A stretch of DNA of 64,000 bases from an uncultured Chloroflexia bacterium (GTDB taxonomy: Bacteria > Chloroflexota > Anaerolineae > CG2-30-64-16). The stretch covers positions 490,659-554,658 of the forward strand of contig CAWAOA010000011.1 in assembly GCA_963783655.1 (NCBI GenBank), given 5' to 3'. Below the pieces are notes generated by a model. That model saw nothing but the letters and a program-made list of their open reading frames with translations, was not told the DNA's origin and searched no databases. Below, one piece after another: positions 5,619-51,340 of this stretch (position 1 is the stretch's first letter; the number at the start of each line of letters is the position of its first letter). A program made the position numbers and the translations under genes.

Positions 5619-5773
5619 TCTGTTTCGCGTAGTGAAGCAGAAGCCCCTCGAACGGGAGGACGTGCGCGACCGCCCGGCGCCCCCCAGCGAAGAGAGACCC
5701 GACCGCTGACCGGCGAAGGCAGTTGGCCGGCAGAGCGGCGTCCTCACCTGCACTTGCAGTGACAGGTGCAAGT

Positions 5774-26246: not shown

Positions 26247-26352
26247 CGGATGCACCCGTCGAAGGATCATTCATTGACCGCCCGCGCCGTTTCGTGTTAC
26301 AACAGGCTGCGTCAGTTCTCAACCCTCATATTGGCTACGAGAGGTAACGGGC

Positions 26353-27652
26353 ATGCGAGTTGTGGCTGTGATCCTGGCAGGTGGAGCCGGTACGCGTTTG
26401 GGGGTTCTCTCCGACGTGCGCGCCAAGCCCGCGGTGGCGTTTGCCGGCAGGTATCGCATCATCGACTTCCCGCTCTCCAACTGCGTCAACTCGGGCATCT
26501 TCGACGTCGCGGTGCTGACCCAATACCAGCCGCACTCCCTCAACGAGCACATCGGGATCGGAAAGCCGTGGGACCTCGATCGCGCCCGCGGCGGGGTCCG
26601 GCTGCTCCAGCCCTACCAGGCGCGCGCCGGGCAGCAGTGGTACGGCGGCACCGCCGACGCCGTGCTGCGCAACCTCGATTATCTGCGCGAGCAGCGGGCC
26701 GACGCCGTCCTGGTGCTGTCGGGCGATCACATCTACAAGATGGATTACCGGCCCATGCTGCGCTATCACGAGGAGAAGGGCGCCGGACTCACCATCGCCG
26801 TGATGAACGTTCGCCCCGAGGAGACGTCGCGCTTCGGGATCATGCACACCGATGATCAGGGCCAGGTGATCGAGTTCCTGGAGAAGCCGGTAGAACGCGC
26901 CGAGCACCCTCGCCAACATGGGCGTCTACGTCTTCAACGCCGGCGTCTTAGAGGAGCGGCTACTCACGCTCAGCCAGGAGCATAAGGACCTCGACTTCGG
27001 CAAGCATCTCATCCCCAGCCTGATCGACACCGGCACGGTGTTCGCCTACCCGTTCGAGGGCTACTGGGTGGACGTCGGCACGATCGACGCGTACTGGCAG
27101 ACCAGCATGGAGCTGGTCACCGGCCAATCCCAACTCGACCTATATGACCCGGGCTGGGTCGTTCACACCCGCAGCCAGGAACGCGCCCCCGTCAAGGTGG
27201 GGCCGCAGGCCACCATTCACGAGAGCATGGTGTGCAACGGCTGCGTGGTGCGCGGCGAGGTTACCCGCAGCGTCCTGTCGCCGGGGGTCCACGTCTCGCC
27301 CGGCGCCGTGGTGCGGCACAGCGTCATCATGAACGATAGCTGGATCGGACCCGGCGCAGTGGTGGACCACTGCATCCTGGATCGCTTTGTGGTGGTGGGC
27401 GCAGGCGCGCAGGTAGGCCACGGGGATGATTTCGACACGCCGAACCAGGCGTGGCCGGACCGCTTCTACACCGGCATCACCGTCGCCGGCATCAGCGCCC
27501 GCATCCCCGGCGGGACGGTCATCGGGCGCAACGTGATCGTCGAGCCAGATGTGGATGAGGATGCCTTCGCTTCCTTCAACGGGCAGGTACCCAGCGGCAG
27601 CAATGTCATTTGTCCTGGCAACGTAGTCACAGGGAGAAGCGCCAATGTCTGA
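26353..27652 (+). CDS. glgC: Glucose-1-phosphate adenylyltransferase, catalytic subunit (one frame change near ~26900)
   Basis: [42 protein letters not shown] and GTADAV motifs. C-terminal left-handed beta-helix part in ORF 26918..27652. Confidence 0.85.
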
Positions 27653-28896
27653 GATGGCCTTGATCCTTGCGGGTGGCGAGAGCCCGGAGCTCAGCGTGCT
27701 TACGGCCCTGCGATCGGAAGGGGCAGTGCCGTTCGCCGGCAAATACCGCATCATCGACTTCACGCTGTCGAACTGTGTCAACTCCGATATCTTCAACGTG
27801 GCCGTACTCACCCAGTACCAGCCGCGCTCGCTAAACGAGCACATCGGCGTGGGCCGGCCCTGGGATCTCGATCGCAGCACCGGTGGGGTGCGCCTGCTGC
27901 AGCCGTACCAGCGCACCAAGGGGGAGCGCGGGGCCTGGCAGGAGGGCACGGCGGATGCGCTGCGCTTCAACCTGGATGCCATCCCTCAAAATGTGGAGGA
28001 CGTGCTCATCCTCGCCGGCGATCACATCTACAAGATGGATTACCGTCCCCTGATCCGCGTGCACCACGACCGCGAGGCGGACGTGACGCTGGCGGTGCGG
28101 ACGGTGCCTTCGTTCGAGGCGTCCCGCTTTGGCATCCTCAGCGCCGACGAGAACAACCGGGTCGTGAGCTACCAGGAGAAGCCTCGCCGCCCGCGCGGCA
28201 ACCTGGCCAGCATGGGGGTCTACGTCTTCCGCCGGGCGCTGCTGCAGGAATGGCTGACGACAGAACCGGGGCTCCACCAGCGGAACCTCGGGGGTGAGGT
28301 GATCCCGGCGCTGGTCGCGTCGCACCGCGCCTACACGTATCCCTTCCGCTCGTATTGGGCCGACATCGGCACGCTGCAGTCGTACTACGAGGCCAACATG
28401 GCGCTGCTCGCCGAGTCGCCGGCGCTGGACCTCTACGATCCGCAGTGGGTGATCCATACGCGCAGCGAGGAACGGGCGCCCGCGCTGCTGGGCCCCGAAT
28501 CGCACGTGGAAGAGGAATCTGCTGTGCGATGGGTGCCGCGTCGACGGCACGGTCATCCGCTCCATCATCGCACCGGGGGTCTACGTGGCTCCCGGCGCCA
28601 CCGTGCGCGATTCGATCCTGATGAATGATGCCGTCGTGGAAGAGGGCGCGGTCGTGGACAACGCCATCCTGGACAAGCGCGTGCGGGTGGGCGCCGGCAC
28701 CCGGCTGGGCGGCGGGCGCGATAACCGCGCCAACCTGCTTTGGCCGCAGCGGCTGGGCAGTGGCCTGACGGTCGTCGGGAAGGGCTCCGTGATCCCCCCG
28801 GGGATCCGGGTCGGCCGCAATGTGTGTATCGGGGCGCACGTCGAGCCGGAGGCGTTCACGTCGCCGGAAGTCCCCAGCGGCGAGTCGATTCTATAG
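27645..28896 (+). CDS. glgD: GlgD-like second ADP-glucose pyrophosphorylase subunit (one or two frame changes near ~28520-28585)
   Basis: Paralogous to glgC, but the G-x-G-x-R-L loop is replaced ([41 protein letters not shown]). 8-nt overlap with glgC. Confidence 0.65.
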
Positions 28897-28897
28897 C

Positions 28898-29689
28898 GTG
28901 TCGCTGTATCTTGCCGTAGCGCAGAAGTCGTTCCAGAAGCGGCTGGCGTATCGCGCCGCCAACCTCGCCGGCATCGTCACCAATACCTTCTTCGGCGCGT
29001 TTTACGTCGGCATCTTCACTGCGCTCTTCCAGGCACGCGGGCAGGTGTCCGGCCTCGACCTGCGCGACACCATCACGTACACGGTTATCACGCAATCGCT
29101 GCTGATGGTGATGTCCGCCTTCGGCAATCGCGAGCTCTCCGATGCGATCGTCAAAGGGGATATCGTGAGCGACATGAGCCGCCCGGTCAATTTCTACGGG
29201 CTCTGGGCCGGGCTCGAATTCGGCCGGGCCTTCTACTACCTGCTCTTTCGCGGGCTCCCCACCTTCGTGTTTGGCCTGCTGCTGTTCGGCGCACGGCTGC
29301 CGGCCACCCCGGTCCACGCCTTGCTGTTCGGCCTGGCGCTGGTGCTGGGGGTGGCGAGCAGTTTCGCCTTCCGCTTCATCCTGAACAGCCTCGCCTTCTG
29401 GACGAACGACGCGCGCGGGGTGATGTACGCCTCGAACACCGCCGTCATCTTCCTTTCGGGGATGCTCGTGCCGCTGAACTTCCTGCCCGACGGTGTGCGG
29501 GCCGTGCTCGAGCTGCTCCCGTTCCGCGCGATGGCGCATCTGCCGGTTGGGATATACCTGGGCAAGGTTGAGGGCGCGGCCCTGGTAGAGGCGGTCGCCC
29601 TCCAGCTAGGGTGGGTGCTGCTGATGGTGCTCGGCGGGCGTTTCATGGTGGGCCGTATGATGCGCAAGCTGGTGATCCATGGCGGGTAG
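28898..29689 (+). CDS. ABC-2-type transporter permease
   Basis: Six-TM-like hydrophobic ORF. GTG 28898 lies just after the glgD stop. First gene of a three-gene permease-permease-ATPase unit. Confidence 0.6.
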   Translation: MSLYLAVAQKSFQKRLAYRAANLAGIVTNTFFGAFYVGIFTALFQARGQVSGLDLRDTITYTVITQSLLMVMSAFGNRELSDAIVKGDIVSDMSRPVNFYGLWAGLEFGRAFYYLLFRGLPTFVFGLLLFGARLPATPVHALLFGLALVLGVASSFAFRFILNSLAFWTNDARGVMYASNTAVIFLSGMLVPLNFLPDGVRAVLELLPFRAMAHLPVGIYLGKVEGAALVEAVALQLGWVLLMVLGGRFMVGRMMRKLVIHGG

Positions 29690-31647: not shown

Positions 31648-31941
31648 ATGCGTGTGATTGCTCTTGGCGCGCTGCGCAGGTTCTGGGATCAGCATCCTGA
31701 TGCACGGCCTGCGTTGGAAGCGTGGTACTTCGACGCTAAGAGGGCAACCTGGAAGACTCCATCGGATATCAAGGATACCTATCGCAATGCCAGCTTCGTG
31801 GGCAGGAATCGCGTGGTATTCAATATCAAAGGAAATAACTACCGTTTGGTGGTAGCCGTGCAGTATGAGCACGGTATCGTCTACATCCGTTTCGTAGGTA
31901 CTCATCGCGAATATGATCGGATTGATGTAGAGACGGTATAA
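31648..31941 (+). CDS. higB: Type II toxin HigB-family (RelE-fold mRNA interferase)
   Basis: 97 aa: LRRFWDQHPDARPALEAWYFDAKRATWKTPSDIKDTYRNASFVGRNRVVFNIKGNNYRLVVAVQYEHGIVYIRFVGTHREYDRI, the typical HigB_toxin family sequence. Confidence 0.85.
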   Translation: MRVIALGALRRFWDQHPDARPALEAWYFDAKRATWKTPSDIKDTYRNASFVGRNRVVFNIKGNNYRLVVAVQYEHGIVYIRFVGTHREYDRIDVETV

Positions 31942-31954
31942 AAGGGGCAGGGAC

Positions 31955-32354
31955 ATGGAGACGGGAAAAGACACCGTATGTATCAGACCCATAAAGACGG
32001 ACCGCGACTATCGAGCCGCGCTGGCTGAGGTGGATCAGCTATTCGATGCCTCGCCCGATACACCTGCGGGGGATCGCCTGGATGTGCTCGTGGCGCTGAT
32101 CGAGGCCTATGAGGCCGGCCACTATCACATTCCACTGCCCGATCCCATTGCTGCTATCGAATACCACCTGGAAAGCCGCGGGTTGACCGCGTCGCGATCT
32201 GGAGCCTTATATCGGCACCCGAGCGCGCGTCTCCGAAGTGCTGCATCGCAAGCGGCCGCTGACTATCGAGATGATCCGGCGGCTCCATGCCGGTCTGGGG
32301 ATCCCGGCAGAGGTGCTAATCCAGCCGTACGATCTGTACAGCGCAGCGGCTTGA
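31955..32354 (+). CDS. higA: HigA-family antitoxin with C-terminal HTH (one frame change near ~32190)
   Basis: IRPIKTDRDYRAALAEVDQLFDA...IAAIEYHLESRGLT is in ORF 31955... The HTH part (RRDLEPYIGTRARVSEVLHRKRPLTIEMIRRLHAGLGIPAEVLIQPY) is in the next frame and ends at TGA 32352-32354. Confidence 0.75.
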
Positions 32355-32388: not shown

Positions 32389-32560
32389 TCAGTTGCTCGT
32401 GCAGAGCCCTTTCTGACTATCCTCTGACCATGCTCCGCGTGCCCGGCAGCCGCAAGTCCCCAGCCAGGGGTCGCGGCTGGTGAACAGCCCCAGCTCCGGT
32501 CGCAGGTAGCGCCCGCAGGTACACGAGCTCGGTCGCGGCGTCCCACCCCACCAGGCGGTG
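32389..32560 (-). pseudogene. RHS/YD core-tail fragment 4 (orphan, ~100 nt of homology)
   Basis: Encodes ...RYLRPELGLFTSRDPWLG... and aligns at nucleotide level with 33700-33800. No upstream YD repeats; short non-homologous tail. Confidence 0.7.
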
Positions 32561-32609
32561 CCGTCAGGTGAGCAGCGCGGGCGGGGCAAGCGAATCGCAC
32601 GCGCGGGGC

Positions 32610-33160
32610 TCATCCGTCATCGAAACGGTCCAGGTACGTTGACAGCGGATTCTCCAGCCACGGCAGGACCGGATCCTCAAGCTGCTGTCGTACGAGCCGG
32701 AGTTGGCTGCGAAGTTCCTTCTCCAGCCGGAAGTGCCAGCGCAGATACAGACCTATGTCGTAGACCAGGGGCAGCGGCGACACGCCCGGCATCGGCAGCC
32801 AGCCCGCAATGTTCGTCTTCTGTTCGCCGCGCACAGGGATGGCCCACGCCTGCCACGGCTCACTGCCCGGGTAGCGCAACAAGAGCACGTCAAAATACTG
32901 ATATAGGTCTCGCGCCACATACGACCACGATACGACTACATGTGCATAACCCGCAGCCCCCAGCTCCTTGGTGAAGGGCAGGTAGAACTCATCCGGGACC
33001 TGGGGTAGGTTAAGTCCGCATAGTCCACCCGAAACCGGTAGCCGCGGCTCTCCAAGGACAACTGCAATTCGTCGCATACGTACGTGCGAAATGGCTTCGG
33101 CAACTCCACCGCAGGACCTCCTCGCTCCGGTGAGCGCATTTGTTCGCCAATGGGCAGCAT
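32610..33160 (-). CDS. Hypothetical protein in immunity position (one frame change near ~32995)
   Basis: ATG directly follows the Imm8-like stop (TAAATG). N-terminus is in ORF 32936..33160 and the rest in 32610..33248 (QVPDEFYLPFTKELGAAGYAHVVVSW...). No family recognised. Confidence 0.45.
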
Positions 33161-33547
33161 TTAGTCGAGCTTGGCCGCGGGATAGTCGGTGTAGTCCTCG
33201 AACTCCCAGCCCCCGTATCTCGCGAGGGTCTCGGCCACGCTTTCCCAATTTGGACCTTCCACCCGCTGGACCAGCTTCTGGATCGCGCTTTCAATCGCCT
33301 CATAGCTGTATTTCGGTAGCACCAAGTAATGCCGCCCCCATACGAAGCCATCTCTGCTCGCCTGCTGGGCTAACCAGGCGGGCGTACAGACCAGGAATTC
33401 GAAAGACTCTTCCCCCGCCGCATCCGACGGACCGATCAACGCTTGGACCAGAAGGCGGAACTCCTCTGGATCGTCGGGACGATAGCTGCGAAGATCCCCA
33501 TCGGGCGCATCCGCGCTCAACAGATAGCGTAAGTGCGCTCTGGTCAT
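33161..33547 (-). CDS. Imm8-like polymorphic-toxin immunity protein
   Basis: EEFRLLVQALIGPSDAAGEESFEFLVCTPAWL ... GRHYLVLPKYSYEAIESAI ... LARYGGWEFEDY matches my recollection of the Imm8 family pattern. GGTGGAG RBS before ATG 33547. Confidence 0.6.
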   Translation of the reverse strand: MTRAHLRYLLSADAPDGDLRSYRPDDPEEFRLLVQALIGPSDAAGEESFEFLVCTPAWLAQQASRDGFVWGRHYLVLPKYSYEAIESAIQKLVQRVEGPNWESVAETLARYGGWEFEDYTDYPAAKLD

Positions 33548-33694
33548 TCTATGGCTCCACCTCGATCTGGGCATTCCCAAACCATTTGCCAGTCGGGTCG
33601 CGGCCGCCATGCAAGGTTGGCTGGCCGACGACCTGACCGCATCTTACGGCTAGGCGGGCGGTACTGCCTCATTCTGTATTCACTGATCAGCACT

Positions 33695-34234
33695 TTACGG
33701 GTTCAGCTTACCCGGCAGCCGCACGTCCCCCGGCCAGGGGTCGCGGCTGGTGAACACGCCCAACTCCGGCCGCCGGTAGCGCGCCCGCAGGTACACCAGC
33801 TCGGTCCCCGCATCCCACCACTCCCCGGTGTAGCCGTAGGGCTGCCCGCCGTCCCCCAGCAGGGGCATCCCATAGGGGTCGTCCCACTCCGCTTCGCTTC
33901 GGGGACTATAGTAGCGGCGCACCGCCAGCACCGCAGAAGCGGCGTCCGTCTCCTGGCGCACGCTGTGCAGCGCATCGCGGCCCGACAGGTAGCGCCACAC
34001 TCCGCCGGTATCGCTGGCTAGCGGGCTGTCCCCCAGGCCGTACAGGTAGCTGCTGGTACCACTCGGGCTGCCGGCCTGCAGCACGGTGGCGAGTGGGGGC
34101 TCTAGATCCAGCAGGTAGGTGGTGGTGACGCCGCCCGTCGCCTGCAAGCGGCGCAGGCCGGCGGGGTCGTCCCACTCCGCTCCGCTGCGCGGACTATAGT
34201 AGCCCGCACTCCAATCCAGCCCGGCCCCTGTCAC
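33695..34234 (-). pseudogene. RHS/YD core-tail fragment 3 (orphan, longest)
   Basis: ...YLYGLGDSPLASDTGGVWRYLSGRDALHSVRQETDAASAVLAVRRY...DPYGMPLLGDGGQPYGYTGEWWDAGTELVYLRARYRRPELGVFTSRDPWPGDVRLPGKLNP, then a stop. No toxin domain follows. Confidence 0.8.
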
Positions 34235-34240
34235 CGCTGC

Positions 34241-34567
34241 CTACCGCTGCTCCGGGAAACGGGGCCGACGATCACTGGGTCCCTGGTAGACCACGCGGTA
34301 CTCACCCTCTAGTTCAGTCTGTAGCTGCCTCCAGAGAGCCACTCCCTCTTCCTGAAATGCCTGCTTCTCCTCGTTCGTAACGAAGCCAGACGAAATGGGA
34401 TCGTCCCAGTTCAATGTTGCGTCATAGGCAGCAGCCCACTTCCGCAATCGATCTCGCGTCTCGACGGTTAGTGGTAGTAACTCAGGATCGATGTTTCCTG
34501 GCTCATGGTTTGCTTCCCACCATAAGGGCCAACTTCTGTAGTCCGGCATCAACTTGATGGTATCCAT
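34241..34567 (-). CDS. Small Trp/acidic-rich protein, putative immunity protein
   Basis: 108 aa intact ORF (YRSWPLWWEANHEPGNIDPELLPL...LNWDDPISSGFVTNEEKQAFQEEG). Called from cassette position only. Confidence 0.4.
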   Translation of the reverse strand: MDTIKLMPDYRSWPLWWEANHEPGNIDPELLPLTVETRDRLRKWAAAYDATLNWDDPISSGFVTNEEKQAFQEEGVALWRQLQTELEGEYRVVYQGPSDRRPRFPEQR

Positions 34568-34582
34568 CTGTCACTCACCAAC

Positions 34583-35277
34583 CTATAAGTCTGCAGGTGC
34601 GCCGCTCGATGAAGTCAGTTCGAACGATGCTCGAAAACCGCCAGCAGTACGACGAAGGTGTCGACCGTGTAACCGATCGCGCACCCACGGATAACGACTC
34701 ACCCTACTGATCGCTTCTCGCACTTCGTCCATCCGGACTGTATAGAAGTCGAATACAGGCGGCGCGATCGTGAACCGGAGTTCTAGGCCTGTCGCCGCCC
34801 GTGCCTCGCGCACGAGTGGTCTACGTTCACAAGGAGTCACCGCCTTGCCCCGATAGAAGTGCTGCCGGAACAACTCGTCGTTGGTCGCCAGGTCGACCAG
34901 AGCATGTTCAGTCTGCGAAGATTGCTCCCACAACCTTTGCTACTGGTACCATGGGGCCCGGCCAACGGCTCTTGTCAGATTCTTCCCGCAGATACTGTCT
35001 CCACAGCCAATGCACCAGCCCCGGTTCGCCCGCGTAATCGTCGGGGACGGCCGGCATCGTATTTGTGCCGGCAGCCACTCGGCAACCAATGGCCGTGAGC
35101 CGCTGGTGTTCGCCTTGCGCCTCAAGCGTCACGGAGCGGGGCAGGGACAGGCTACCGCCGGCATCGCACAGGCCCAGCAGGCAGGTGGCGTAGATGGACG
35201 CGCCGCCGAGGGTGCGGCTGTCAAACAGGTAGAGCCAGGGCTTCTGCCTCACCTCATCAGCCACAAGATCATTGCCC
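34583..35277 (-). CDS. Unknown protein(s) following RHS fragment 2 (either one frameshifted ~230-aa ORF or two overlapping ORFs 34908..35277 and 34583..34933)
   Basis: ATG 35277 is preceded by AGGAG. MGNDLVADEVRQKPWLYLFDSRTLGGASIYATCLLGLCDAGG.... The same frame runs on upstream into the RHS tail without a stop. No family recognised. Confidence 0.35.
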
Positions 35278-35344
35278 ATACCACTCCTGCCTCTCCACAG
35301 TTCAGGCCTGAGGGAGCTTCCGTATTCGTTCAGGCAACCGCCTG

Positions 35345-35545
35345 GCTGCCGCACGTCCCTCGACCAACTGTCCCTGGTCAGGAATAGCTCAGCGCCTGAC
35401 CGCCAGCACCGCCGCCGCTCCATCCGTCTCCTGGCGCACGCTGTTGAGGGCATCCCACTCCGCTGCGCTGCGGGGATAGGTATCGCGGCCCGAGAGGTAG
35501 CGCCAGGTCGCGCCACCATCGCTGGTCAGGGGGCTGTCCCCCACG
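35345..35545 (-). pseudogene. RHS/YD core-tail fragment 2 (internally deleted)
   Basis: ...GVGDSPLTSDGGATWRYLSGRD[TYPRSAAEWD]ALNSVRQETDGAAAVLAVRR-stop, then ...ELFLTRDSWSRDVRQPGG. Lacks the DPYG...GEWWD segment present in fragments 1 and 3. Confidence 0.7.
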
Positions 35546-35556
35546 CCGGGTTTGCA

Positions 35557-35934
35557 CTACGAGGCAAGCTCAGACCGAAACTCGCGGCAGTAGAAGGACA
35601 GGGACTGGTCCTCAATTTCCACTACCCGGTATCTCTTACTGCGCTCCCACCCCATGCTCTGGGTCGAACTGATCTCGAGCGGCCACAGTTGCAGCAGACT
35701 TGTGGCACCGGGGGTGTAGCTGAGATCGCTTACCCCTTGAAACCATAGCCGCAGCCGGCGCCGGTCGTCTCGCTGTGATGGTCGCAACTCAATGGTCAAA
35801 GTGATGTCGGGGATGCTTCCCGGAACGTGCTCCTGCTCGACGGTGAGCCTTACCAACACAGGAAACTGGCGCGGCTGCAGCGCCCAGTACCCTTCAATCG
35901 CCAGCTCATGGGATCTCATCGCCATATTCTCCAA
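35557..35934 (-). CDS. Imm50-like immunity protein (tentative)
   Basis: 125 aa intact: ...LRLWFQGVSDLSYTPGATSLLQLWPLEISSTQSMGWERSKRYRVVEIEDQSLSFYCREF. This resembles the Imm50-type pattern as I remember it. Confidence 0.4.
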   Translation of the reverse strand: MENMAMRSHELAIEGYWALQPRQFPVLVRLTVEQEHVPGSIPDITLTIELRPSQRDDRRRLRLWFQGVSDLSYTPGATSLLQLWPLEISSTQSMGWERSKRYRVVEIEDQSLSFYCREFRSELAS

Positions 35935-36000
35935 GGAAGTGTTCTTCCAATTGCAACCTTCGGGAAACTGGTAAGCTGATACCGTGTTCGGAATGCGTAC

Positions 36001-36765
36001 CTAGGGCAAATTCTGCGAGCACACATCCGTGCCAGGGTATGGCCCGTAGCAGGCATAATTGGTGAAGTTGTGAGCTGCCAGCAGCCGGCACACGCGTTCC
36101 GTCACCAACACGATGTTCGGGTTCTCATCCGGGTTGAAGAAGTCAGCGCCGCTCCAGCGCCCCTCATCGATCCCGATCGCGCCCCGCTGCAAAAAGACAA
36201 TGCGCCCGCAAGCGGCGCATGCGACGATCTGCTCGCGGTCGACGCCGACGCGCCAGGATGTGCCGGTGACCTTCGCCTCGTACAATTCGGGGACGGCGCC
36301 CAGGCTTCCCCGCAGCCTCGGGCTCCACCTGACCGCCACCGGCAGAAACTGGACGCCGCTGACCTGGGCGGCCTGCTAGCGCCTCGACCACCTCGCGCCG
36401 CAAGATCAGCCAGCCGGGGAACGCATGCATGATTGAAGGGACCATCGTCCCTGTCACTTCCCCGCTTGGCTGGCCGAGCGTATCGCCGGGTTCAAGCACG
36501 AAGGTGTCGGGCAAGCCGGCCCCGGAGCGCACCGCCTGCGCCAGGCGTCGCCACTCTGCCGCCGGCAGCGGCCGCCCCCGAGTCTCGCGGCCAGCGTCTG
36601 ATCCGGAATCGGCAGGTACAGTCGCCGGCTGCCGGTCCAGGTACCCCCGCAGACGGGACAGATGATCGCCGGCAGCCTGAGGTCCCGAGACATATGGATC
36701 GGATTAGCCTCTTCCGCAGCCATGTCGGTTTCGTAATCCGGGTGCCAGAGGTCATAGAATTTCAT
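36001..36765 (-). CDS. Double-CXXCG motif protein (Imm11/DUF1629-related family), two frame changes
   Basis: Two CxxCG motifs (ICPVCGG; ACAACGR). Pieces lie in ORFs 36454..36780, 36164..36532 and 36001..36339, joined near ~36575 and ~36375. Confidence 0.55.
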
Positions 36766-36831
36766 CTTAGCAGAAATCAACCTGTGGCCGGCCAGCGCTC
36801 GCTAGCGCATCGATCAGAAACTCCACAACCG

Positions 36832-37182
36832 TCACCTCAGCGCCATCGCTGCTGTTTGTGTATATTCTACCGATCTCCTGCCGGCGGGACTCGTAAGATG
36901 TGAAAACGTGCCTGCGACTTGATTTCCGACGATGAGACCCTCGTCTCCCACCTCGATGTCCCCAGAAGCAGCCAGGATGGTCTCATGCACAGGTCCGCGC
37001 GTATGCACCACGACCCAGACGTCCTCGCTCGGGGCTGCCGATACCGCGATTCCTCTGGGGCCAAACACGACGTTCTCCTCGCCGGTTTCCCATTCCGGAT
37101 AAGCGTTTGGGTCTTCCGCATCAAAGAGCCCGAGTTGAGCGTACTCGGCACTGATCATTCCGCTGAAGATAATCCCTGCCAT
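36832..37182 (-). CDS. Small ComJ-like / nuclease-inhibitor-like protein (tentative immunity protein)
   Basis: 116 aa intact. ISAEYAQLGLFDAEDPNAYPEWETGEENVVFGPRGIAVSAAPSEDVWVVVHT loosely resembles ComJ-type inhibitors. Confidence 0.3.
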   Translation of the reverse strand: MAGIIFSGMISAEYAQLGLFDAEDPNAYPEWETGEENVVFGPRGIAVSAAPSEDVWVVVHTRGPVHETILAASGDIEVGDEGLIVGNQVAGTFSHLTSPAGRRSVEYTQTAAMALR

Positions 37183-37352
37183 TGGTCCCTTCTACTGCAC
37201 TGGTCACGCGTGTCCAGCGTTCTCGCTGGTCCAAACGGCCTGCCGGTCTGTGCTGCGTACTCCGCGGTTCACTCCGGCTCAAGCCCTCGAACCACAACCC
37301 TGAACCTGGCTCCGTCCTCGATGCTGTGGTGCCGGTAGAGATTGTGCATCAT

Positions 37353-37640
37353 CTAGCCTTGGGTGTAGCGTCGGGGATGTCCGAGCCCATACCCATGCGC
37401 CCTCAGCTGCCTCGGCTGGCGCACGTCCCCCGGCCAACTGTCGCGCGTCAGGAACAGCCCCAGCGCCGGCCACAGGGAGCGCGCCCGCAGGTACACCAGC
37501 TCGGTCTCCGCGTCCCACCACTCCCCGCTGTAGCCGTGGGGCTGCCCGCCATCCCCCACCAGCGGTACCCCATAGGGGTCGTAGCGGCGCACCGCCAGCA
37601 CCTGCTCCGCCGCATCCGTCTCCGAGAGTAAGCTGCTCTA
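37353..37640 (-). pseudogene. RHS/YD core-tail fragment 1 (orphan)
   Basis: ...SETDAAEQVLAVRRYDPYGVPLVGDGGQPHGYSGEWWDAETELVYLRARSLWPALGLFLTRDSWPGDVRQPRQLRAHGYGLGHPRRYTQG, then a stop. Starts right after the SUKH gene stop. Confidence 0.8.
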
Positions 37641-37656
37641 GGTCTGTTGGGCGCAT

Positions 37657-38330
37657 TCACAAGGAAATGAAGTGCGAACCGCTCATGCCATCGGTGGTTG
37701 TTAGTTCCGTCAGCCACTCCTCGAATGAGCTGGCAAGCACGACGTACGCTGCTCTCGTGGACTCCACGCCAAACGGAAAGAACTCATACTCATGGTCCAG
37801 GAAGAACACGCATTCAGTCGCGCACGATTCATGCGCCAGGGCGAGATAGTTCCCCGTCTCCTACTGCGCAGAAGGCGGTGTAATTGAGCCGCCGGTCGTC
37901 ATACGTTGAGTCACCGTTTGCGAATGCCTGAAAGATGTTGTGCATCTTTCGGTTGGTCGGAGTATCTCCCGGCCATAATGCGATCGCATGGGTACTGTGT
38001 ACGCTTCCGATCCGGCGTGGGCCGGTAGCGAAGGCGGAAAAATTCTGCACCATTGGTGAGCCGCAGTAGCTCAATTAGCGGTGCGGGCAATCGATGCTTT
38101 ACGCAATCATCGACTGAGGCTAACTCTCCCTGCGCCGGAGGATGCAGTGTGTGAGAACAGGGAATTATCCACGCCCCTGCTTGCCGACGTACGCCATCGA
38201 CAAACCAGCTTGGAACCTCATCCTCGCTCCATGAACTCAAAGGGATAGCTAGATGCGGAGAACGGAGAACCATGGCTAGAGCATCACCAAGCAGCATAGG
38301 CATCACCTTCGGAGCCGAACAATTCCACAA
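37657..38330 (-). CDS. SMI1/KNR4 (SUKH-1) family immunity protein, two frame changes
   Basis: LPAPLIELLRLTNGAEFF in ORF 37911..38330, a middle part in 37829..38074, and the C-terminus GNYLALAHESCATECVFFLDHEYEFFPFGVESTRAAYVVLASSFEEWLTEL in a third frame ending at TGA 37657-37659. Confidence 0.65.
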
Positions 38331-38433
38331 TCAGTACGGGAAATCGATACCAATAGTGGCTGCCTCCACAAGGGGATCTGTTGCCAGTGTACCATCGGCG
38401 CTGCCGGCGGGCTGTAGTGCTTTGGTACCACGG

Positions 38434-39169
38434 TCACGCCGTACGGTCAGATTGGTTGATAACCAACCCGCTGCTACCCGTCGCTCCGGCGAGCAGATCG
38501 GCCCAAACGGAGTTGCGGTCTGCCTCGGTGGCAAACATGAGATAGGCGACCTCGTGTTGCCTGGCCGGCGCCGGTCTTTTGCGAGAGCGGCCTTCCGGCG
38601 GTTCGCCCTCATACCGCAGCGCCAGCCCCGGCCCGCGGTGCGAGCCAATCGCCAGCGTCCCCGCTTCAACCGACTTCACCCGCTCTGGCTGCACGAAGAT
38701 GTACCACATCCCCAGGTCCGGCTCCGGTGTGTGCCCGATGAGCAGAAAGCGAGACTCGTGTGCGATCGCCATCACCGCATGCTCGCGGATGCCGAAGGTC
38801 CGCCAGTACGCCTGCAGCCGCGCAAAGAAGCGGCGCCGGTCGTTCACAGTGAATGTGCCCGTGGCGTGATAGGGCGATCTTGTCTCCGGGGTGCAAAGGG
38901 GTAGGCGCAGGGCCCGGCAAAGCTTGCGGTTCCCACGATACGTAGTCACGCTGCGCTGCCATCCGCCCCGCGACCATGATCGCGGCCGCGAGCAGCAGGA
39001 ACCCCGCCGCCACGAGGTACAGCCACCATCGCTCCGCGTTACGGGTGGCGAGCCACGCCGCCGCGATCCCGCCCAGGAAAGGCAGGCCGGCGAGCCAGCC
39101 CTGGATGGACCACTGGCCGATCTTGTGAGAGCGGGCGTTGTACAGCCACCACAGCAGGCGCGGGCTCAC
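38434..39169 (-). CDS. Hypothetical membrane protein (one frame change near ~38900)
   Basis: GTG 39169 overlaps the EamA stop (GTGA). Two TM helices (WLAGLPFLGGIAAAWLA; WWLYLVAAGFLLLAAAIMVAG), then a soluble domain in ORF 38434..38949. Confidence 0.4.
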
Positions 39170-40116: not shown

Positions 40117-41099
40117 TCAGTAAGCCGGCGCCACAGTGGCTAGTGGCCGCGGCGCGTCAGCAGGATGCCGGTGAGCACCGCAGCGGCGCCGGCAAGCTGC
40201 AGCGGCGCCAGCCGGTCGCCCAACACCAGCCACGCCAGTATGACCGTGAACACCGGAACCAGGTTCTGGAAGACCGCCGTGCGGGCGGTGCCGACACGCT
40301 GGATGCCGGTGGTCCATAACACGTACGCCAATGCGATGGATAGGGAGGACGAGTACAACAACCCTGCCCATCCGCCGGCCGGCACGCTGCCCCACGGCTG
40401 CGCGATGATCTGCGGCAGCGAAACGAGAACCAGCAGCGGTGTGCCGAACATCATCGACATGGTGGTGACTTTGAGCGGCGAATGCCTGCGCAGCAAGGTG
40501 CCGCTTCCGGCTACGTACCCGGCCCAGCCCATGGCGGAGCCCAGCATCAACAGGCTGCCCAATGCCGCCCCGCCGCGCAAATCGATCTGCTGGCTGCCGC
40601 CAACGATGATCAGGACGATGCCGGCGAACGAGAGCAGGATGCCCGCCCACACCAGCGGCTTCGCCCGCTCGATCCCCAGTAGGTGCGCGTAGATGGCGAC
40701 GAAGATGGGGGTGGTCGCGAGGATCAGCGCCGCCGTCCCGGCGGATGCCTGCGCCATCCCGTTGATGAAGAGGATCTGGTAGAAGGAATGGCCGATCAAC
40801 CCGAGTATCGAGCATCAGCAGAGCGTCGTGCCGCGAGAGCCGGAAATTCTCGCCGCGCAGCAGCATGAACGCCGTCATCACGCCCGTGGCGATCACGAGC
40901 CGAGCGGAGTTGAAAGCAAGCGGCTGGAAGGCGCTGAGGGTGAGCTTGAGGACGACGAAATTGACCGCCCAGATCACCACCGTGATGAGCAGGAGGATTT
41001 CGGTTCGTCCGAAGGATCGGGAGTCAGCCGGAGACGCAGCCCTCAAAGCGCTGTGGCCCGGCTCGGGCCGGGCCACAGCACCATGTTCCCCCGTTTCGC

Positions 41100-41103: not shown

Positions 41104-42936
<1,833 letters not shown>

Positions 42937-43177
42937 CTTTATTCTCGACTCTATTCAGTTATGGCAGCGCGCGGGCTGCCTCCGGTATCATACACCATGT
43001 GGTAGATGAGCACGATATGTGGGTGCGCCGGCGATGCTCTTGTGCCCCGCCAGGCCGCTGCTTGCCCGTCTCGTGCTCTCTTCATTATCCTATGGATGCA
43101 GCAAGTAGCACAGTAGTTGCACTTCCTCTGCCTTACCCGCGCCTTACCGGGCGGAGAGCAACGGGAAGCTGGCAACT

Positions 43178-44692: not shown

Positions 44693-45346
44693 CTACTCGT
44701 TGGTGACGGCGATCTTCGCCAGGCCTGCCACATTGAGCACGTCGTCCGTATAGGGCAGCACGCGCAGTGTCAGCTCGAGGTAGACCCTCTCCCGCAACTG
44801 CCCGCGCCACGTGATCGAGTCGCCGAGCTTGCGGAAGGCGTAGCCGCTGACCCCGCCAATCCGGGCGCCGCCCGATCCCGTCCCCTCATAGCTGATCGTC
44901 GTTCCCGGGATCATCTGCCCGCGGCCGACGCGATGGGTGACTCCCACCGTGTAGGTCCATGCCGGTTTATCGGGGAACTGGGCAGTGGCCGGGGCGGGGG
45001 ATGCGATGGCAAGGCGCACAACCCCGGCCGCGATCATACGCTGTGCGTCCGCAGTCACCAGCCTTTGGTTGATGTTGGCGTTGATGCCCGGCACCGGAGC
45101 GCCGCTCCAGTCGAGCGAGTCGCCGGTCCGTTTCCATGCAAGCTGTCCGCCGACGTCGATGGCGGCTCCGTCGGGGCCCGTGCCGGCATAGCGCATGTTG
45201 GTGCCGGGGAGCAGATCCCCTCGTCTCACGGTTTGGATCGATGGACCGGCATAATCGAGGGTTGCCGGTGGGGTTGCCGGCGCAGCGCAGCCGGTGAGCA
45301 GAAGACCGATCAGGAGCAACGGGACCATCTTACGAATTCTGCACAT
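44693..45346 (-). CDS. Hypothetical lipoprotein with internal duplication
   Basis: Signal plus lipobox LLIGLLLTGCAAP. Two similar halves (GDLLPGTNMRYAGTGPDGAAI... / GQMIPGTTISYEGTGSGGARI...). Confidence 0.5.
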   Translation of the reverse strand: MCRIRKMVPLLLIGLLLTGCAAPATPPATLDYAGPSIQTVRRGDLLPGTNMRYAGTGPDGAAIDVGGQLAWKRTGDSLDWSGAPVPGINANINQRLVTADAQRMIAAGVVRLAIASPAPATAQFPDKPAWTYTVGVTHRVGRGQMIPGTTISYEGTGSGGARIGGVSGYAFRKLGDSITWRGQLRERVYLELTLRVLPYTDDVLNVAGLAKIAVTNE

Positions 45347-46575
45347 TCTCTGCCTCCCCCGTGCTGGGCATGATTGAATTCGGCGCCAACTGGGGACGGC
45401 GCGCCAGCCGCCGTCCCATCACGGGCAGCAACGTTACTGCCAGCATCCATATCGCGCCCATCAGAACGGTCGCGATCAACCCGATTCCACTTGCCACCAT
45501 GCGCTGACGGGCGTCACCGGCCAATAGCGCCGTCAGCGCCATGCTTCCCGCGGCCAGGTTCCAGAGGCCGTGGATCACCAGCGACGCCAACCACAATCCG
45601 AACCCTCTTCCCCACCGCTTCTCAGTCAGGAGAGCCTGCCAACCGAGACCTGCCAGCCCGGATGCGATAACGTGCACGGCGGCGGTCCCACCGCGTGCCA
45701 CCATCACCGAGCCCCAACTGCTGCCCGCGCCGGCCAGCGCCAGCGAGCCGTTCATGATCCCTTCGAACATGGTGAAGCCTGCGCCGGCGGCTGCGCCCAG
45801 CAGGAATCCGTCGAGCCGGCTCAGGCGGCGGCCCGTCGCCGCTGCCAGCGGGACGGCGAGCGACTTTGCGATCTCTTCGATCAGCGGCGCGCCCACCGAC
45901 ATCGCCGCCAAAACGATCAGCACCAGGCCCGGAGACTGCAACAGGTCAGTCAGCGGCCCCAGGTCAACCCGCCCGGGATTGCCTGCCTGGCCCTGCGCCC
46001 ACGTCTGGATTTCGGCAACCAGCTCGAGGCTGCGAGACGTTCAGCCAGACCATACCGGCGAACAAGACCACCAGAAGCCCCAGCGCCTCCAGGATGATTG
46101 CGAGCAGCGAGCTCCCCAGGCCGCCCCACGCCAGGCTGCCCGTCGCCATCCGCCCGGAGACCGTCTCGCCGCCCCGCCGTCCTGCTTCCGCCACCAGCGA
46201 AAGGAACAGCAGCGCCGGCAAGGCGCCGGCCAGAACGTGCAGGAACGGGATAGCGACCGTGGCTCCAACGTTATAGAGACTCTGGCCGGTCACCACCACG
46301 ACCACCGTCAGTGCAAGGAGCCAGCCCCAACCGGGCAGGCGAAACGGGCCGCCAGGGGCTCCCCGCAGGGCCCGCCAGGCGTGAAGCGCCAGCGGCAGCC
46401 CGAGTACCAGCCCCAGGGCCACGATCGCCAACGCGATCGTCGTCCCTTGCAGGCCCGACCTACCGGCGCCGCCCGCACGGGCGCCAAACAGAAGCAAGAG
46501 CACGCCGATTCCCGGTCCTACTACGGCGGCCAGGAGACCCCACAGCAACGCAACCACCAGGACCGTCTTTCTCAT
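45330..46575 (-). CDS. PrsW-family intramembrane metalloprotease (one frame change near ~45950)
   Basis: C-terminal half has EEIAKSL, GAGFTMFEG and HVIASGLAGLG/HGLWN motifs (ORF 45330..45941). The N-terminal TM half is in ORF 45964..46662, starting at MRKTVLVV. Confidence 0.65.
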
Positions 46576-46586
46576 CTCTCCTGCTC

Positions 46587-48921
46587 CTACCGCCGTCCGA
46601 GTAACCGCTTCAAGATAAATACTGCCGCCAGCTTGTCCAGGGGGTGGTTGAAATTGCCGCACTTAGGGCTTTGCACGCAGCTTGGGCAGCCACCCGTACA
46701 CGGGCAGTTGTCTACGGCGTCCAACGTGGCCGACCACAACTGGGGCAGCAGCTCGAACCCCTTCTCGGCGATCCCCACCCCGCCGGGAAACCCGTCGTAG
46801 ATGAAGATCTGCGCCGCATCCGTGTCGGGATGGCGGGGTGTGCTGAGGCCGCCGATATCCCAACGGTCACACATGGCAAACAGCGGCAGGATGCCGATCA
46901 CGGCATGTTCGGCTGCGTGGATCCCGCCCAGGAAGTCGAGCCCCTGGTCCGGCAAGCTGGCCCGGCAAATCGTCGGGTAGATCCCACCACATCCCCATGG
47001 TGTCGTAATCGTTCGCAGGCATCTCCAGCTCTACGTCACCGAGAACGGCTTCGGTGAACTGCTGGAGGCGGCGATAACCTGTTACCTGGCTGCGCACCCG
47101 TATCATGCCGTAGTAGGCCGGCGCCGCCGGGAAGGTGGCGTGGCGCACGGACCGGACGATGCGCACGTCGTTCCACTCGCGCGGCTGGGTGTAAAAGTCT
47201 CCTTTGGAGCGCTGCACCACCGCGTAGCGCATCGCCTCATTATACTCTGTGACCTCGTATGACTCCCCCTGGTGCAGGTAGACGGCCCCGGGGTGCACGC
47301 GGAACGGCGCCTGGCTGGCGCTCAGCTCCTCCAGCGTCTGGTTGTCGCGATCTCCGTCCAGCACGGCGAAGCGTTCCCCCCGGGCATCACGCAGATTGGT
47401 GTTCTGCGCCGGGTAGTCGCCGCGCGTGTAGGTCCAGCGACGCCCGTCATAGCGGACCAGGCCCTGGTTCTCGAGCGTCACCATGGCCGGTACGAAACCG
47501 GGCCCAAAGAGCGTCTCGTCGTCTCCGAGCGCACCCACCGGTTTCGGCTCCCCCTCGCCGGGGACCTGCAGTGGGGCTTCGTGCGCCGCGCACGCCAGGT
47601 GCCGCTGCAGTACGTAGACGTTGTCCGGGTCGATCAGGGCGTGCTCGTGCGGGCGGTCGAACAACTCATCCGGATGGCGCATGTAATACTGGTCCAGCGG
47701 GTTGTTCAGCCCGATCAGCATCGCCAGCGAAGGATCGCGGTCGCGGCCGGCGCGCCCTGCCTGCTGCCACATGCTGGCGATGGTCCCGGGGTAGCCCACG
47801 AGCACCGCCGCGTCCAGCTCGCCGACGTCGATGCCGAGCTCGAGCGCGGTGGTGGCGGTGACCCCGCGCAGCCGGCCCTCGAACAGCTCTCGCTCGATCC
47901 GGCGGCGCTCCTCGGCCAGGTAACCGGCCCGGTACGCCGCGATCTGCTTCACCAGCTCGGGGTTCGTCTTGCGTAACTCATTCCGGGCGTAGCGCAGCAG
48001 CAGCTCGGCCACGACCCGCGTGCGGGCGAAGCTGATGGTCCTCACCCCGGATTCCACCAGCGTCGTGAAGAGAACCGTCGCCTCGCGGTTGGCGCTGCGG
48101 CGAGCCGTGCGCGTCTCATCGAGAAACGGCGGGTTCCACAGCGCGAACGTGCGCGGACCGTGCGGCGATCCGTCGTCGGTGACCACGGTCGCCGGGAGCC
48201 CGGTGAGCAGCTCGATGTGCTCGCCGGGATTGGCAATGGTAGCGGACGCCGCGATGAACTGCGGCCCGCCGCCCTGCTGGTGCAGGGCGCAGATGCGCCG
48301 CAGCCGGCGGATCACGCACGCCACCTGCGAGCCGAAGACACCCCGGTAGCTGTGCGCCTCGTCGATCACCACGTAGCGCAGGTGCCGGAAGAACTCCGCC
48401 CACAACGGGTGGTTGGGCAGGATGCCGACGTGCAGCATGTCCGGGTTCGTGATCAACACACGCGTGCGCCGGCGGATGCGCGCCCGCGCCGCTTGCGGCG
48501 TGTCGCCGTCGTAGGTGGCCGCCGCGGCATTCGCCACCGGCTTCGCCAGCGCCTGCCACTTGCCCAACTGGTCCTGGGAGAGCGCCTTGGTCGGGTAGAG
48601 GTACATGGCACGGGCGAGCGGATCGCGCGCCAGCGCGTCGAGCACCGGCACGTGAAAGCAGAGTGTCTTCCCGCTGGCGGTCGACGTGGCGATCACCACG
48701 TTCTGCCCGGCGAGCGCGGCGTTGATCGCCTCCGCCTGGTGCAGGTACAGCCGTTCCACCCCGGCCGCGCGCAGCGCCGCTTCGGCAGGCGGCGCCAGCC
48801 GCGTCCGCAGCGAGCCATACCGCGCCGCCCGCGCCGGCATGCGCTTCTGGTGCACCAGTTGCCCCGCATACCCGCGCTGCCTGGTCAGCTCACGAAGGAA
48901 GGCATCGGGATTGAAACCCAT
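46587..48921 (-). CDS. DEAD/DEAH-box helicase with C-terminal DUF1998 zinc domain (YprA/MrfA type); one frame change near ~46960
   Basis: Motif I ATSTASGKTLCF, motif II VVIDEAHSY, helicase C region. DUF1998-like tail ...HAAEHAVIGILPLFAMCDRWDIGG...CPCTGGCPSCVQSPKCGNFN in ORF 46587..46955. Confidence 0.8.
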
Positions 48922-48968
48922 AGCACTATTTTACCATTGAACGGTAGTTCTAGGTTCGGGTTTGTGTC

Positions 48969-49739: not shown

Positions 49740-49965
49740 GTCGTTGTGAGAGGGGGGCTCCCTCCAGGTTGAGCCCCTCCGGTTGACCCCTCCGGGTGAC
49801 GCATAACGTAAGACCCCTGCGGGTGACCCATCCGGTGACGGTGACGTATGACGTATGACGGCTGCCCCCCATTTCCCCGCAGCAACCCGGCCCCAGATCA
49901 TCGACTTTGCGTATATAATGTCCCCGTACCATTCGCTCCATCACGGGGCGAGAACAGGAGATGGG

Positions 49966-51340
49966 ATGACACGCGTCACGGAGATCGTGGAGCGGCGACG
50001 AGAGGAATTCCTGGCGGAACTGTCCGAGCTGCTTCGCTACGCAAGCGTCAAAAACAATGAGATGGAGCTCGGCGCGGCTGCGGGTTGGATCGCCAACCGC
50101 ATGCAGCGCGCCGGAGCGCACGTGCGCATGCTGAATACCGGCGGTCCGGCTGTGGTGTTTGGGGAGGTGGGCAGCGGTCCGCGCGCCCTGCTCTCCTATG
50201 CCCACTACGACGTCCAGCCGGCCGACCCGCTGGATCTGTGGGATACCCCGCCCTTCGAGCCTACCGTCCGCGACGGGAAGTTGTACGGGCGCGGCTCCTC
50301 GGACGACAAGGGGGACGCGGTCGCCCGCATCCAGGCGGTCGAGGTGTATCGCGAGGCGTACGGCGAGCTGCCGTTACGCGTGAAGTTCTTCGTGGAAGGG
50401 GAAGAAGAGGTAGGCAGCCCGCATCTGGCCCCCGTGGCTGCCCAGTATGCCGACCTGCTGCGCTCCGACGGCGTGCTGTGGGAGTCGGGCGGCTTCGACG
50501 AGATGGACCGCTACACCTTCTACTGCGGCGTCAAAGGGATCGCCTACCTGGAATTGCGGCTCAAGGGCGCCAACACCGATCTGCACTCCAGCCTCGCGCC
50601 CATCGTTCCCAATCCGGCATGGCGCCTCGTGCAGGCGCTCGCGACGCTGCGCGATCCCGCGCGGCCGCATCACGCTGGACGGCTTCATGGAGCGGGTCCG
50701 CCCGCCGAGTGAAGCGGACCTGCATTTCATCCGCCGCATCCCCTTTGCCGGCGCCCAGATGAAGGCCAATTGGGGCATCCCCGCTTTCGAAAACGACCTG
50801 CCCGACGATGAGGCGATCGTCGCCTATCTGACACAGCCTACCTGTACGATCTGTGGCATCCGCAGCGGCTTCATCGAGGAGGGGGAGAAGACGATTCTGC
50901 CCAGCAGCGCCATGGTGAAGCTCGACTTCCGGCTGGTGCCGGACCTCACGCCGGAGCTGACGCAGATGCTGCTGCGCGAGCATCTGGACCGGCGCGGCTT
51001 CACCGACGTCGAGATAGTGCCTGCCGCGGGGATGCCCGCCGCGCGTTCGAACGTCAGCTCGCCGCTCGTCCAGAGCGCCATCGCGGCGGCCGAAGAGGTC
51101 TACGGCCACGAACCGGTCGTCTACCCGTCGCACGGTGGTTCCGGCCCCATGTATCCCCTCGTGCAGGGCCTGGGGATGGATGGGTTCATGGCGGGGGTGG
51201 GCTATGCGGGCAGCCGCCTGCATGCGCCGAACGAGAACATCCGGGTGGACGACTACTTCCGGCACATCGAGTTCCTGGTGGAGTTCATGCGCCGCTTCGC
51301 TGCAAACGAAAGCGGAGATACATTCCCCCATAATGGGTGA
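49966..51340 (+). CDS. M20-family metallopeptidase/dipeptidase (one frame change near ~50650)
   Basis: SYAHYDVQPADPLDLWDTPPFEPTVRDGKLYGRGSSDDKG and FFVEGEEEVGS are in ORF 49855... The C-terminal half is in ORF 50447..51340. ATG 49966 is preceded by AGGAG. Confidence 0.8.

Follow-up and report, generated by a model that had tools for sequence, protein, structure and literature searches.

The stretch of DNA analysed here (the window, 64 kb in length, from a probable Chloroflexota genome) contains a compact island of small genes interspersed with fragments of the conserved core of RHS polymorphic toxin genes. On the minus strand, from position 38303 down to 32417, eight small genes and four RHS core-tail fragments (tails 1–4) follow one another, all in the same orientation. 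The spacing from gene to gene or from gene to tail is 0–170 nucleotides (nt) across the array, which is the tight packing that characterizes polyimmunity loci. Six of the eight genes carry evidence of an immunity function, based on family, fold or conserved context, and none of them is toxin-like. No toxin tip follows any of the four tails. An immunity-rich array with lost tips had been proposed in a sequence-only reading of this DNA, and the present analysis supports that proposal. The order of the elements in that reading is retained, but its outer boundaries have shifted: the SUKH gene most likely starts with the ATG at 38303, and the homology of tail 4 ends near 32437/32417 rather than at 32389. 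The features are as follows, with the basis of each assignment given last.

37657..38303, minus: SUKH-1 (SMI1/KNR4) immunity gene, two frameshifts; Pfam after frame joining
37353..37640, minus: RHS tail 1, core end reached but decayed (..RYTQG, then stop), tip-less; TIGR03696
36832..37182, minus: ComJ-fold protein, 116 amino acids (aa), predicted NucA/NucB-type nuclease inhibitor (immunity); predicted fold
36001..36765, minus: double-CXXCG (SitI6-type) immunity gene, two frameshifts; Pfam after frame joining
35557..35934, minus: 125-aa intact open reading frame (ORF), family unassigned; position only
35280..35548, minus: RHS tail 2, with an internal deletion and a decayed core end that runs in frame up to the ATG of the following gene; repeats and DNA alignment
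34583..35279, minus: 233-aa protein of an unnamed family, one frameshift; conserved context
34241..34567, minus: 108-aa Trp/acidic protein, CdiI-like; conserved context
33695..34240, minus: RHS tail 3, the longest (179 aa), cut at ..WPGDVRLPGKLNP (then stop) before the core end; TIGR03696
33161..33547, minus: Imm8 immunity gene, intact; Pfam
32610..33160, minus: 183-aa ORF, family unassigned, one frameshift; three-frame reading
32417..32560, minus: RHS tail 4, short core fragment, two indels; repeats D3/D5/D9 and DNA alignment
31648..32354, plus: HigB/HigA toxin–antitoxin pair on the left flank, in convergent orientation to the array, HigA with a frameshift; HigB_toxin Pfam E value 2.4e-33

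The fully intact ORFs of the array are the ComJ-fold gene, 35557–35934, 34241–34567 and the Imm8 gene. Frameshift correction is required for the other four genes and for tail 4.

RHS core tails and their missing toxin tips

The four fragments are homologous to one another and to the core of rhs genes, as had been read from the sequence. A direct-repeat search aligned 33703–33882 with 37403–37582 (84% identity, 180 nt) and 35391–35548 in tail 2 with 33913–34040 in tail 3 (81% identity, repeats D2/D8), and its three-copy repeat families take in 32458–32559. In a six-way DNA alignment, the four window tails and two tails of the related contig L007 (ENA ERZ25039513) share a single homologous frame. 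Tail 1 (37353–37601) matches the NCBIfam model TIGR03696 (Rhs_assc_core) with an E value of 3.8e-9 (36.9 bits, model positions 1–69 of 76), and tail 3 (33695–34234) with an E value of 1.6e-9 (38.2 bits, positions 2–51 of 76); both exceed the cut-off of 32.5 bits. The conserved C-terminal core of this family has the pattern ..YxGxxxDxxTGLxYLRARYYxPxxGRFxSxDP..NxYxYxxNNPxxxxDPxG. Tails 2 and 4 are tied to the RHS core by their DNA alignment with tails 1 and 3, not by the profile. Tail 3 and the 3′ end of the main L007 rhs gene are 80.6% identical in DNA, and the tail 3 protein is identical to a database protein (P0001) encoded on a 572,603-bp NCBI/ENA contig. Tail 4 is 85–87% identical to both L007 tails over 109 nt. 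The divergence between the window tails is 13–35%, and their longest exact matches to each other are 10–29 nt, near the lower limit for homologous recombination. No full-length rhs gene or other RHS sequence was found in the 64-kb window, in agreement with the sequence-only reading: tblastn with RHS proteins of five related loci matched the four tails alone.

The core of this lineage extends about 22 residues past the WPGDVRxP motif, to ..NPLRYTDPSGH in the relative P0003, and the toxin tip starts beyond it. The tips had been expected directly after the motif; they are missing, as stated then, but their starting point lies slightly further downstream. The stop codon of tail 1 is located 19 codons past WPGDVRQP, at the core end, and is followed by 170 nt without an ORF. 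Tail 2 also reaches the core end (..LRPELWRG), and the ATG of the next gene lies three codons further on in the same frame, so that the junction reads ..LRPELWRGRSG followed by the initial M. Tail 3 stops 5 codons after the WPGDVR motif and tail 4 stops 8 codons after it (frame-corrected); both end at least 16 codons short of the core end. These three distances fall in the range of 5–20 codons that was originally noticed. The cleavage motif of the core marks the end of two tails, and the other two are truncated before reaching it. The remaining sequence has also been altered in two of the tails. The last 20 codons of tail 1 are heavily substituted (..LRAHGYGLGHPRRYTQG, then stop, compared with ..LNAHSYTNNNPLRYTDPSGH in P0003), and the internal deletion recognized earlier in tail 2 amounts to about 130 nt by alignment.

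The absence of tips is unusual among related tails. Related loci from public genomes and metagenomes, 34 in number, contain 29 tails with a complete ORF; about 25 of these have tips of at least 100 aa, mostly 190–310 aa, and many of the related tails are orphan-like, with a core of only 12–150 codons. Tip-less tails account for four of four in the window versus about four of 29 elsewhere (hypergeometric p ~0.002, with some near-duplicates among the comparators). No toxin family was matched by the array ORFs in Pfam or NCBIfam. Orphan rhs-CT cassettes, in which a C-terminal toxin tip (CT) follows the core, are located downstream of a full-length rhs gene sharing that core. None of the four tails carries such a tip, and no such gene precedes them within the window, where the upstream region consists of an unassigned ORF and two EamA genes. 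The immunity gene expected downstream is present: the ComJ-fold gene follows tail 1, the 34583–35279 gene follows tail 2, and the Imm8 gene follows tail 3. Beyond tail 4, there is only the island boundary.

A 30-nt in-frame insert, TCCCCGMAGCGMAGCGGAGTGGGA, which encodes YSPRSxAEWD, is present at three non-homologous positions within tails 2 and 3 (minus strand, 33882–33905, 34170–34193 and 35453–35476; zero expected by chance), and its origin is unexplained. Neither tail 1 nor L007 contains it, nor does any of 44 retrieved loci. A structured element was considered and rejected; its weak hairpin is no better than that of shuffled sequence, and the other loci hold no copies.

The eight small genes

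When single-frame ORFs were compared with Pfam, Imm8 was the sole match in the array, which was misleading until the frames were joined. The Imm8 gene matches PF15586 with an E value of 1.8e-33 (115.5 bits, profile positions 7–114 of 114). The single-frame pieces of the SUKH gene gave no Pfam match; the protein joined from three frames matches SMI1_KNR4 (PF09346) with an E value of 1.8e-8 (35.5 bits against a cut-off of 25.4, positions 3–124 of 125). The double-CXXCG protein, also joined from three frames, matches Gmx_para_CXXCG (PF09535) with an E value of 6.2e-14 (52.4 bits against a cut-off of 25, positions 24–218 of 236). Its match to NCBIfam TIGR02264, the SitI6 family double-CXXCG motif immunity protein, has an E value of 6.1e-13 and 48.7 bits, under the equivalog cut-off of 100.15. 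Therefore, 36001–36765 is a member of this family but not an equivalog. These three assignments are those that had been made by eye.

The protein encoded at 36832–37182 resembles ComJ of Bacillus subtilis, the inhibitor of the NucA DNase, in its predicted fold. A word-based homologue search with this protein returned itself alone, and an exhaustive HMMER search was required to collect 107 homologues, which are mostly stand-alone proteins of 120–135 aa. An AlphaFold2 model built on an alignment of 39 relatives had a pLDDT confidence score of 91.2. In a Foldseek comparison with the PDB, the top match was B. subtilis ComJ (4mqd; E value 8e-6, probability 1.00, TM 0.78/0.70), and the next unrelated matches had E values above 1. 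One of the relatives is fused to a DNase_NucA_NucB domain, and others are fused to HEAT repeats or DUF4253. The Pfam ComJ profile (PF11033) did not match the window protein, and it matched one of 40 relatives weakly (E value 0.0086). The protein is thus ComJ-like by its modeled fold and not by Pfam membership, and the earlier designation holds in the former sense.

Two further genes are assigned by conserved context. The region 34583–35277, previously listed as one or more ORFs of no recognizable kind, encodes one protein of 233 aa that starts at 35279. Its single database homologue, P0012, is a stand-alone protein of 222 aa with the same start Met (39% identity, 93% coverage). In its locus, L009, an Rhs core that ends in ..NMVDPTGH is followed by a toxin tip of about 210 aa, and the P0012 gene lies 48 nt beyond this tip, whereas in the window the core end touches the ATG of the gene. 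As tail 2 runs into it in frame, 34583–35279 was considered as the toxin tip of tail 2. This candidate was rejected because the homologue in L009 is a separate gene downstream of the Rhs tip. The gene occupies the position of an immunity gene, and its product is predicted to be an immunity protein by conserved context. For the 108-aa protein encoded at 34241–34567, tblastn found homologues in 22 plasmid or megaplasmid records, at no more than 47% identity. In both Pantoea and Ralstonia, the start of the homologue precedes the end of a CdiA-like giant gene by 4 nt; this gene encodes 3598 aa with hemagglutinin repeats in Pantoea and 2626 aa in Ralstonia. This gene order corresponds to the classical cdiA-cdiI arrangement, which suggests that 34241–34567 encodes a CdiI-like immunity protein.

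The other two genes are placed by position. The intact ORF at 35557–35934 was described as Imm50-like, but it did not match Imm50 (PF15594) or any other Pfam family at E values up to 10, and it had no match in NCBIfam, PDB sequences or plasmids (tblastn). Its single-sequence AlphaFold2 model (pLDDT 49) was too poor for a fold comparison. The start codon of 32610–33160 directly abuts the stop codon of Imm8 (TAAATG), and no match was obtained in Pfam, NCBIfam, PDB or plasmids. At least three proteins of the array had been considered to belong to no nameable family. Their families are still unnamed, and 34241–34567 and 34583–35279 are now candidate immunity genes by their context.

The reliability of the reading frames has to be taken into account. 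The window assembly is indel-rich and long-read-like. Housekeeping genes are also split by frameshifts, namely two sugar-nucleotidyltransferases (NTP-transferases), an MrfA-type helicase, EamA, FtsH, an M20 peptidase and HigA (26278–29686, 40143–41043, 41143–42954, 46590–48930, 49852–51337 and 31955–32354). The second EamA transporter is spread over frames −2 and −3, and the AAA domain and the M41 peptidase of FtsH are found in separate ORFs. At least seven frameshifts were counted in about 12 kb inspected outside the island, and the L007 contig is likewise frameshift-ridden. Because the housekeeping genes of the window are split too, at a frameshift density of similar order, the frameshifts of the island are not usable as evidence of pseudogenization. 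The term "decayed" applied to the fragments in the sequence-only reading is therefore justified by the truncation of tails 3 and 4, the internal deletion of tail 2 and the substituted final codons of tail 1, which are safe evidence, but not by the frameshifts. Neither the uninterrupted immunity ORFs nor those frame-corrected pieces that were checked for stops contain a nonsense codon, and only frameshifts break their frames; the check covered the first half of 34583–35279 via a contiguous tblastn alignment only and did not extend to the middle CXXCG piece.

Origin of the array and alternative explanations

The contig L007 still shows the presumed ancestral layout. After the 3′ end of an rhs gene, it encodes a tip that contains PT-TG, then a SUKH gene, an orphan core tail with a new tip, and additional small ORFs. 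The region 37400–38355 of the window aligns with L007 at 87% DNA identity across the SUKH gene and the orphan tail, up to the core end; beyond this point, L007 runs on into a toxin and the window does not. Upstream of the SUKH gene, there is no trace in the window of the rhs gene or the tip of L007. Public genome contigs yielded relatives of no more than 52% identity, and a metagenome scan found 31 loci at 40–56% identity, none with homologues of the island genes. The nearest relatives are Chloroflexota and Anaerolineae metagenome-assembled genomes (MAGs). The GC content at third codon positions is 0.84–0.87 in the tails and 0.83–0.90 in the host genes. It is 0.49–0.74 in most of the immunity genes, and the CXXCG gene has a value of 0.84 in its last third. 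This mosaic of composition is consistent with variable parts that were imported horizontally onto a resident core.

Remnants of RHS genes were also observed in two other loci. Positions 5700–10700 of L008 (ENA ERZ25039462 contig_79486), from a related organism, contain two RHS tail fragments beside remnants of DDE_5 transposases. The first tail keeps a tip of about 215 aa, in which an HExxH motif is found. The second (P0005) has no tip and adjoins housekeeping genes, much as tail 4 of the window does. Positions 9670–11100 of L002, in the Chloroflexota MAG OH_SDB_50, contain a lone RHS tail with a 35-aa tail past the core end, followed by small ORFs. It is possibly another toxin-less remnant in this phylum.

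We consider the region to be probably a disarmed array of orphan rhs cassettes that has turned into a heterogeneous polyimmunity locus. The ancestor would have consisted of an rhs gene and orphan cassettes, each composed of core fragment, toxin tip and immunity gene, in the layout still seen in L007. The main rhs gene and every toxin tip would then have been deleted, and the immunity genes would have been retained together with core remnants of 50–180 codons. The eight closely spaced genes on one strand are probably co-transcribed. Each product would neutralize one class of toxin domain from the Rhs, CdiA-like or other polymorphic toxins of neighbours; for example, the ComJ-fold protein would counter NucA-type DNases, and Imm8 would counter Ntox7 or EHHH nucleases. 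A cell that has given up attack from this locus would still be protected by the array. We infer this function from the families of the proteins and from the literature on orphan immunity genes. The core remnants would be mainly scars of old cassette boundaries. Rare homologous exchange with rhs DNA via the remnants may be possible, but it is the least supported step, and a role of the tails as recombination handles is the weakest link in the proposal.

A stronger version of this proposal can be formulated, in which the remnants are kept as homology anchors for the capture of immunity genes without a recombinase, the tips were actively and almost precisely removed, polyimmunity loci arise directly from orphan rhs arrays, and Chloroflexota-type lineages are "defence-only". 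We regard it as quite improbable.

The best-surviving alternative, although we judge it unlikely, is a neutrally decaying old rhs locus in which the toxins, cores and immunity genes are all pseudogenes and nothing is functional. The frameshift corrections in half of the genes and in tail 4, the substituted end of tail 1, the internal deletion of tail 2 and the absence of the main rhs gene from the 64-kb window are in favour of it. The ratio of nonsynonymous to synonymous substitution (dN/dS) is 0.67–0.87 for tail 1, although all of the dN/dS estimates given here are noisy because both of the compared sequences contain assembly errors. However, essential and housekeeping genes of the window are split as well, so most of the indels are attributed to assembly errors. 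Moreover, all four tips are deleted, while none of the eight flanking small genes, including SUKH, Imm8 and the ComJ-fold gene, has been lost; such a pattern is not expected under unselected deletion. A retained function is further favoured by the four fully intact ORFs, the lack of nonsense codons in the pieces checked and a dN/dS of 0.26 versus L007 in the C-terminal half of the SUKH protein.

Several observations weigh against the proposed disarmed but functional array. The N-terminal half of the SUKH protein has a dN/dS of 0.76. One SUKH frameshift, between ..CAVGDG and (N/L)YLALAHES (37853–37860), lies at the same codon in L007 (around position 3137), which is an independent assembly. It may be a true inactivating mutation or a coincidence of errors; the two sequences have different homopolymers at this codon (GGGG in the window and CC in L007). 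The frameshift density of the island (about 8 in 5.9 kb) is about twice the lower-bound estimate from the housekeeping genes, and some of the genes may be pseudogenes. The immunity role of two of the eight genes, 35557–35934 and 32610–33160, is suggested by position only. Finally, the absence of rhs is a result for the 64-kb window and not for the organism as a whole; two further tail-like proteins, P0002 and P0003, are encoded on a 189-kb NCBI/ENA contig that possibly belongs to the same genome.

A still-armed array of orphan rhs cassettes, in which the ORFs after the tails (e.g., 34583–35279) are tips hidden by assembly errors, is very improbable. Tail 2 indeed runs in frame and stop-free into 34583–35279, the frames of this indel-rich assembly are unreliable, and two ORFs have no assigned family. 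However, the homologue of 34583–35279 is a stand-alone protein that begins at the same Met and is encoded downstream of a separate Rhs tip, the genes after tails 1 and 3 encode a ComJ-fold inhibitor and Imm8, and the gaps of 0–170 nt after the tails have to be compared with typical tips of 190–310 aa. The lack of any match to a toxin family in Pfam or NCBIfam also argues against it. A mis-assembly, in which a chimeric long-read consensus placed foreign RHS tails between unrelated small genes, is also very improbable, although the assembly is visibly poor and assemblies typically collapse at repeats of the RHS core kind, since the junction of SUKH and tail 1 recurs at 87% identity in L007, an independent contig from another sample, the tails differ by 13–35% and thus are not collapsed copies, and the tail 3 protein is on record on the 572-kb contig.

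Comparison with known immunity loci, and the flanks

Heterogeneous polyimmunity loci have been described as toxin-free sets of unrelated, tightly spaced immunity genes on the same strand, and they were proposed to act against toxins of non-kin (Zhang, Aravind et al. 2012, Biol Direct, PMC3482391). The window array agrees with them in its tandem arrangement of unrelated families on one strand (SUKH, Imm8, ComJ-type, CXXCG and others) and in the absence of a toxin domain. It differs in three respects. Such loci are said never to be interrupted by toxin genes or cassettes (PMC3482391), whereas four toxin-less RHS core remnants interrupt the window array; the status of these remnants as cassettes depends on how a cassette is defined. 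An adjacent XerC/D-type recombinase or mobile-element context is frequent but not universal in polyimmunity loci, and none was seen beside the window array among the flank ORFs scanned. Extended polyimmunity loci were listed only in Proteobacteria, Bacteroidetes, Firmicutes and Actinobacteria (PMC3482391), whereas the window probably derives from Chloroflexota.

Arrays of orphan rhs-CT/rhsI modules (Poole et al. 2011, PMC3150448; Koskiniemi et al. 2014, PMC3967940) are similar in that homologous core fragments in tandem are followed by immunity genes, and L007 represents the classical form with the same SUKH-tail module. However, the defining CT is absent from all four window units, and no full-length rhs gene is located upstream within the window. 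Orphan immunity genes are also known from type VI secretion system (T6SS) and Rhs loci. In Vibrio cholerae, old immunity genes are kept after the loss of the effector, which was modeled as sequential displacement (PMC5361080), and an orphan immunity gene in an Rhs locus of Serratia (Rhs1) was shown experimentally to protect against a foreign Rhs tip (PMC10539506). Rhs poly-immunity arrays are reported from Xenorhabdus/Photorhabdus (Martinkus et al. 2026 Curr Biol, as cited in the preprint 10.64898/2026.07.13.738213) and from Stenotrophomonas (same preprint). These arrays share with the window the loss of effectors and the retention and accumulation of immunity genes. They are located directly behind an active effector in T6SS clusters of Gram-negative bacteria, whereas the window array has no adjacent effector and no T6SS context, and the core remnants that separate its immunity genes are not reported for them in the available text of these sources. 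The AID/rAID (acquired interbacterial defence) islands of Bacteroidales (Ross et al. 2019, as cited in PMC10539506 and PMC10470768) are likewise immunity-only and directed against toxins that the host does not encode. As summarized in those citing papers, AID systems reside on mobile elements or beside a tyrosine recombinase; by contrast, none was seen among the flank ORFs scanned, and the array is flanked by housekeeping genes.

The sequence-only reading overstated the novelty of the organization, as polyimmunity loci, orphan immunity arrays and Rhs poly-immunity arrays have already been described (PMC3482391, PMC5361080, PMC10539506). No new principle is involved, because orphan immunity and Rhs-linked poly-immunity arrays are established. 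New here are the core remnants between immunity blocks, the lack of an adjacent effector gene and of a recombinase among the ORFs scanned, and the probable phylum. The locus looks like an evolutionary intermediate between an orphan rhs cassette array and a toxin-free polyimmunity locus. It suggests one recombinase-free route to immunity-only islands, in which toxin tips are lost and antidotes are retained, and it extends the occurrence of extended polyimmunity loci to a probable Chloroflexota genome. To our knowledge, interbacterial antagonism in Chloroflexota is almost unstudied. Up to four unnamed families of small proteins are flagged by the array, two of which have an immunity context and could be paired with toxins.

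The flanks of the array are ordinary. One side contains the HigBA pair and an ABC transporter, and the other side contains an unassigned ORF, two EamA genes and FtsH. The flank ORFs scanned on both sides, which are part of the ORFs of the window, encode HigBA, an ABC transporter, two EamA proteins, FtsH, a methyltransferase, a VTT-domain protein and a helicase, and no recombinase was seen among them. The helix-turn-helix of HigA is read in a second frame, and the gene ends at 32354. Tail 4 is truncated about 60 nt from the stop codon of the convergent HigA gene. The variable region is bounded on its left by the HigB/HigA pair, which has a low GC content (0.52 for HigB) and lies about 60 nt from this final remnant.

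On the other side, an ORF at 38434–39140 (minus strand) between the SUKH and EamA genes possibly combines a two-helix membrane segment with a 171-aa soluble part joined by a frameshift. The portion at 38434–38949 upstream of SUKH had no family and no plasmid match and is unlike the toxin tip of L007; it was excluded from the array. A PrsW-family intramembrane protease gene at 45333–46040 (minus strand) adjoins the MrfA helicase gene, and no link between it and the island was found. The PrsW domain is one of the known N-terminal trafficking modules of RHS toxins (PMC3482391).

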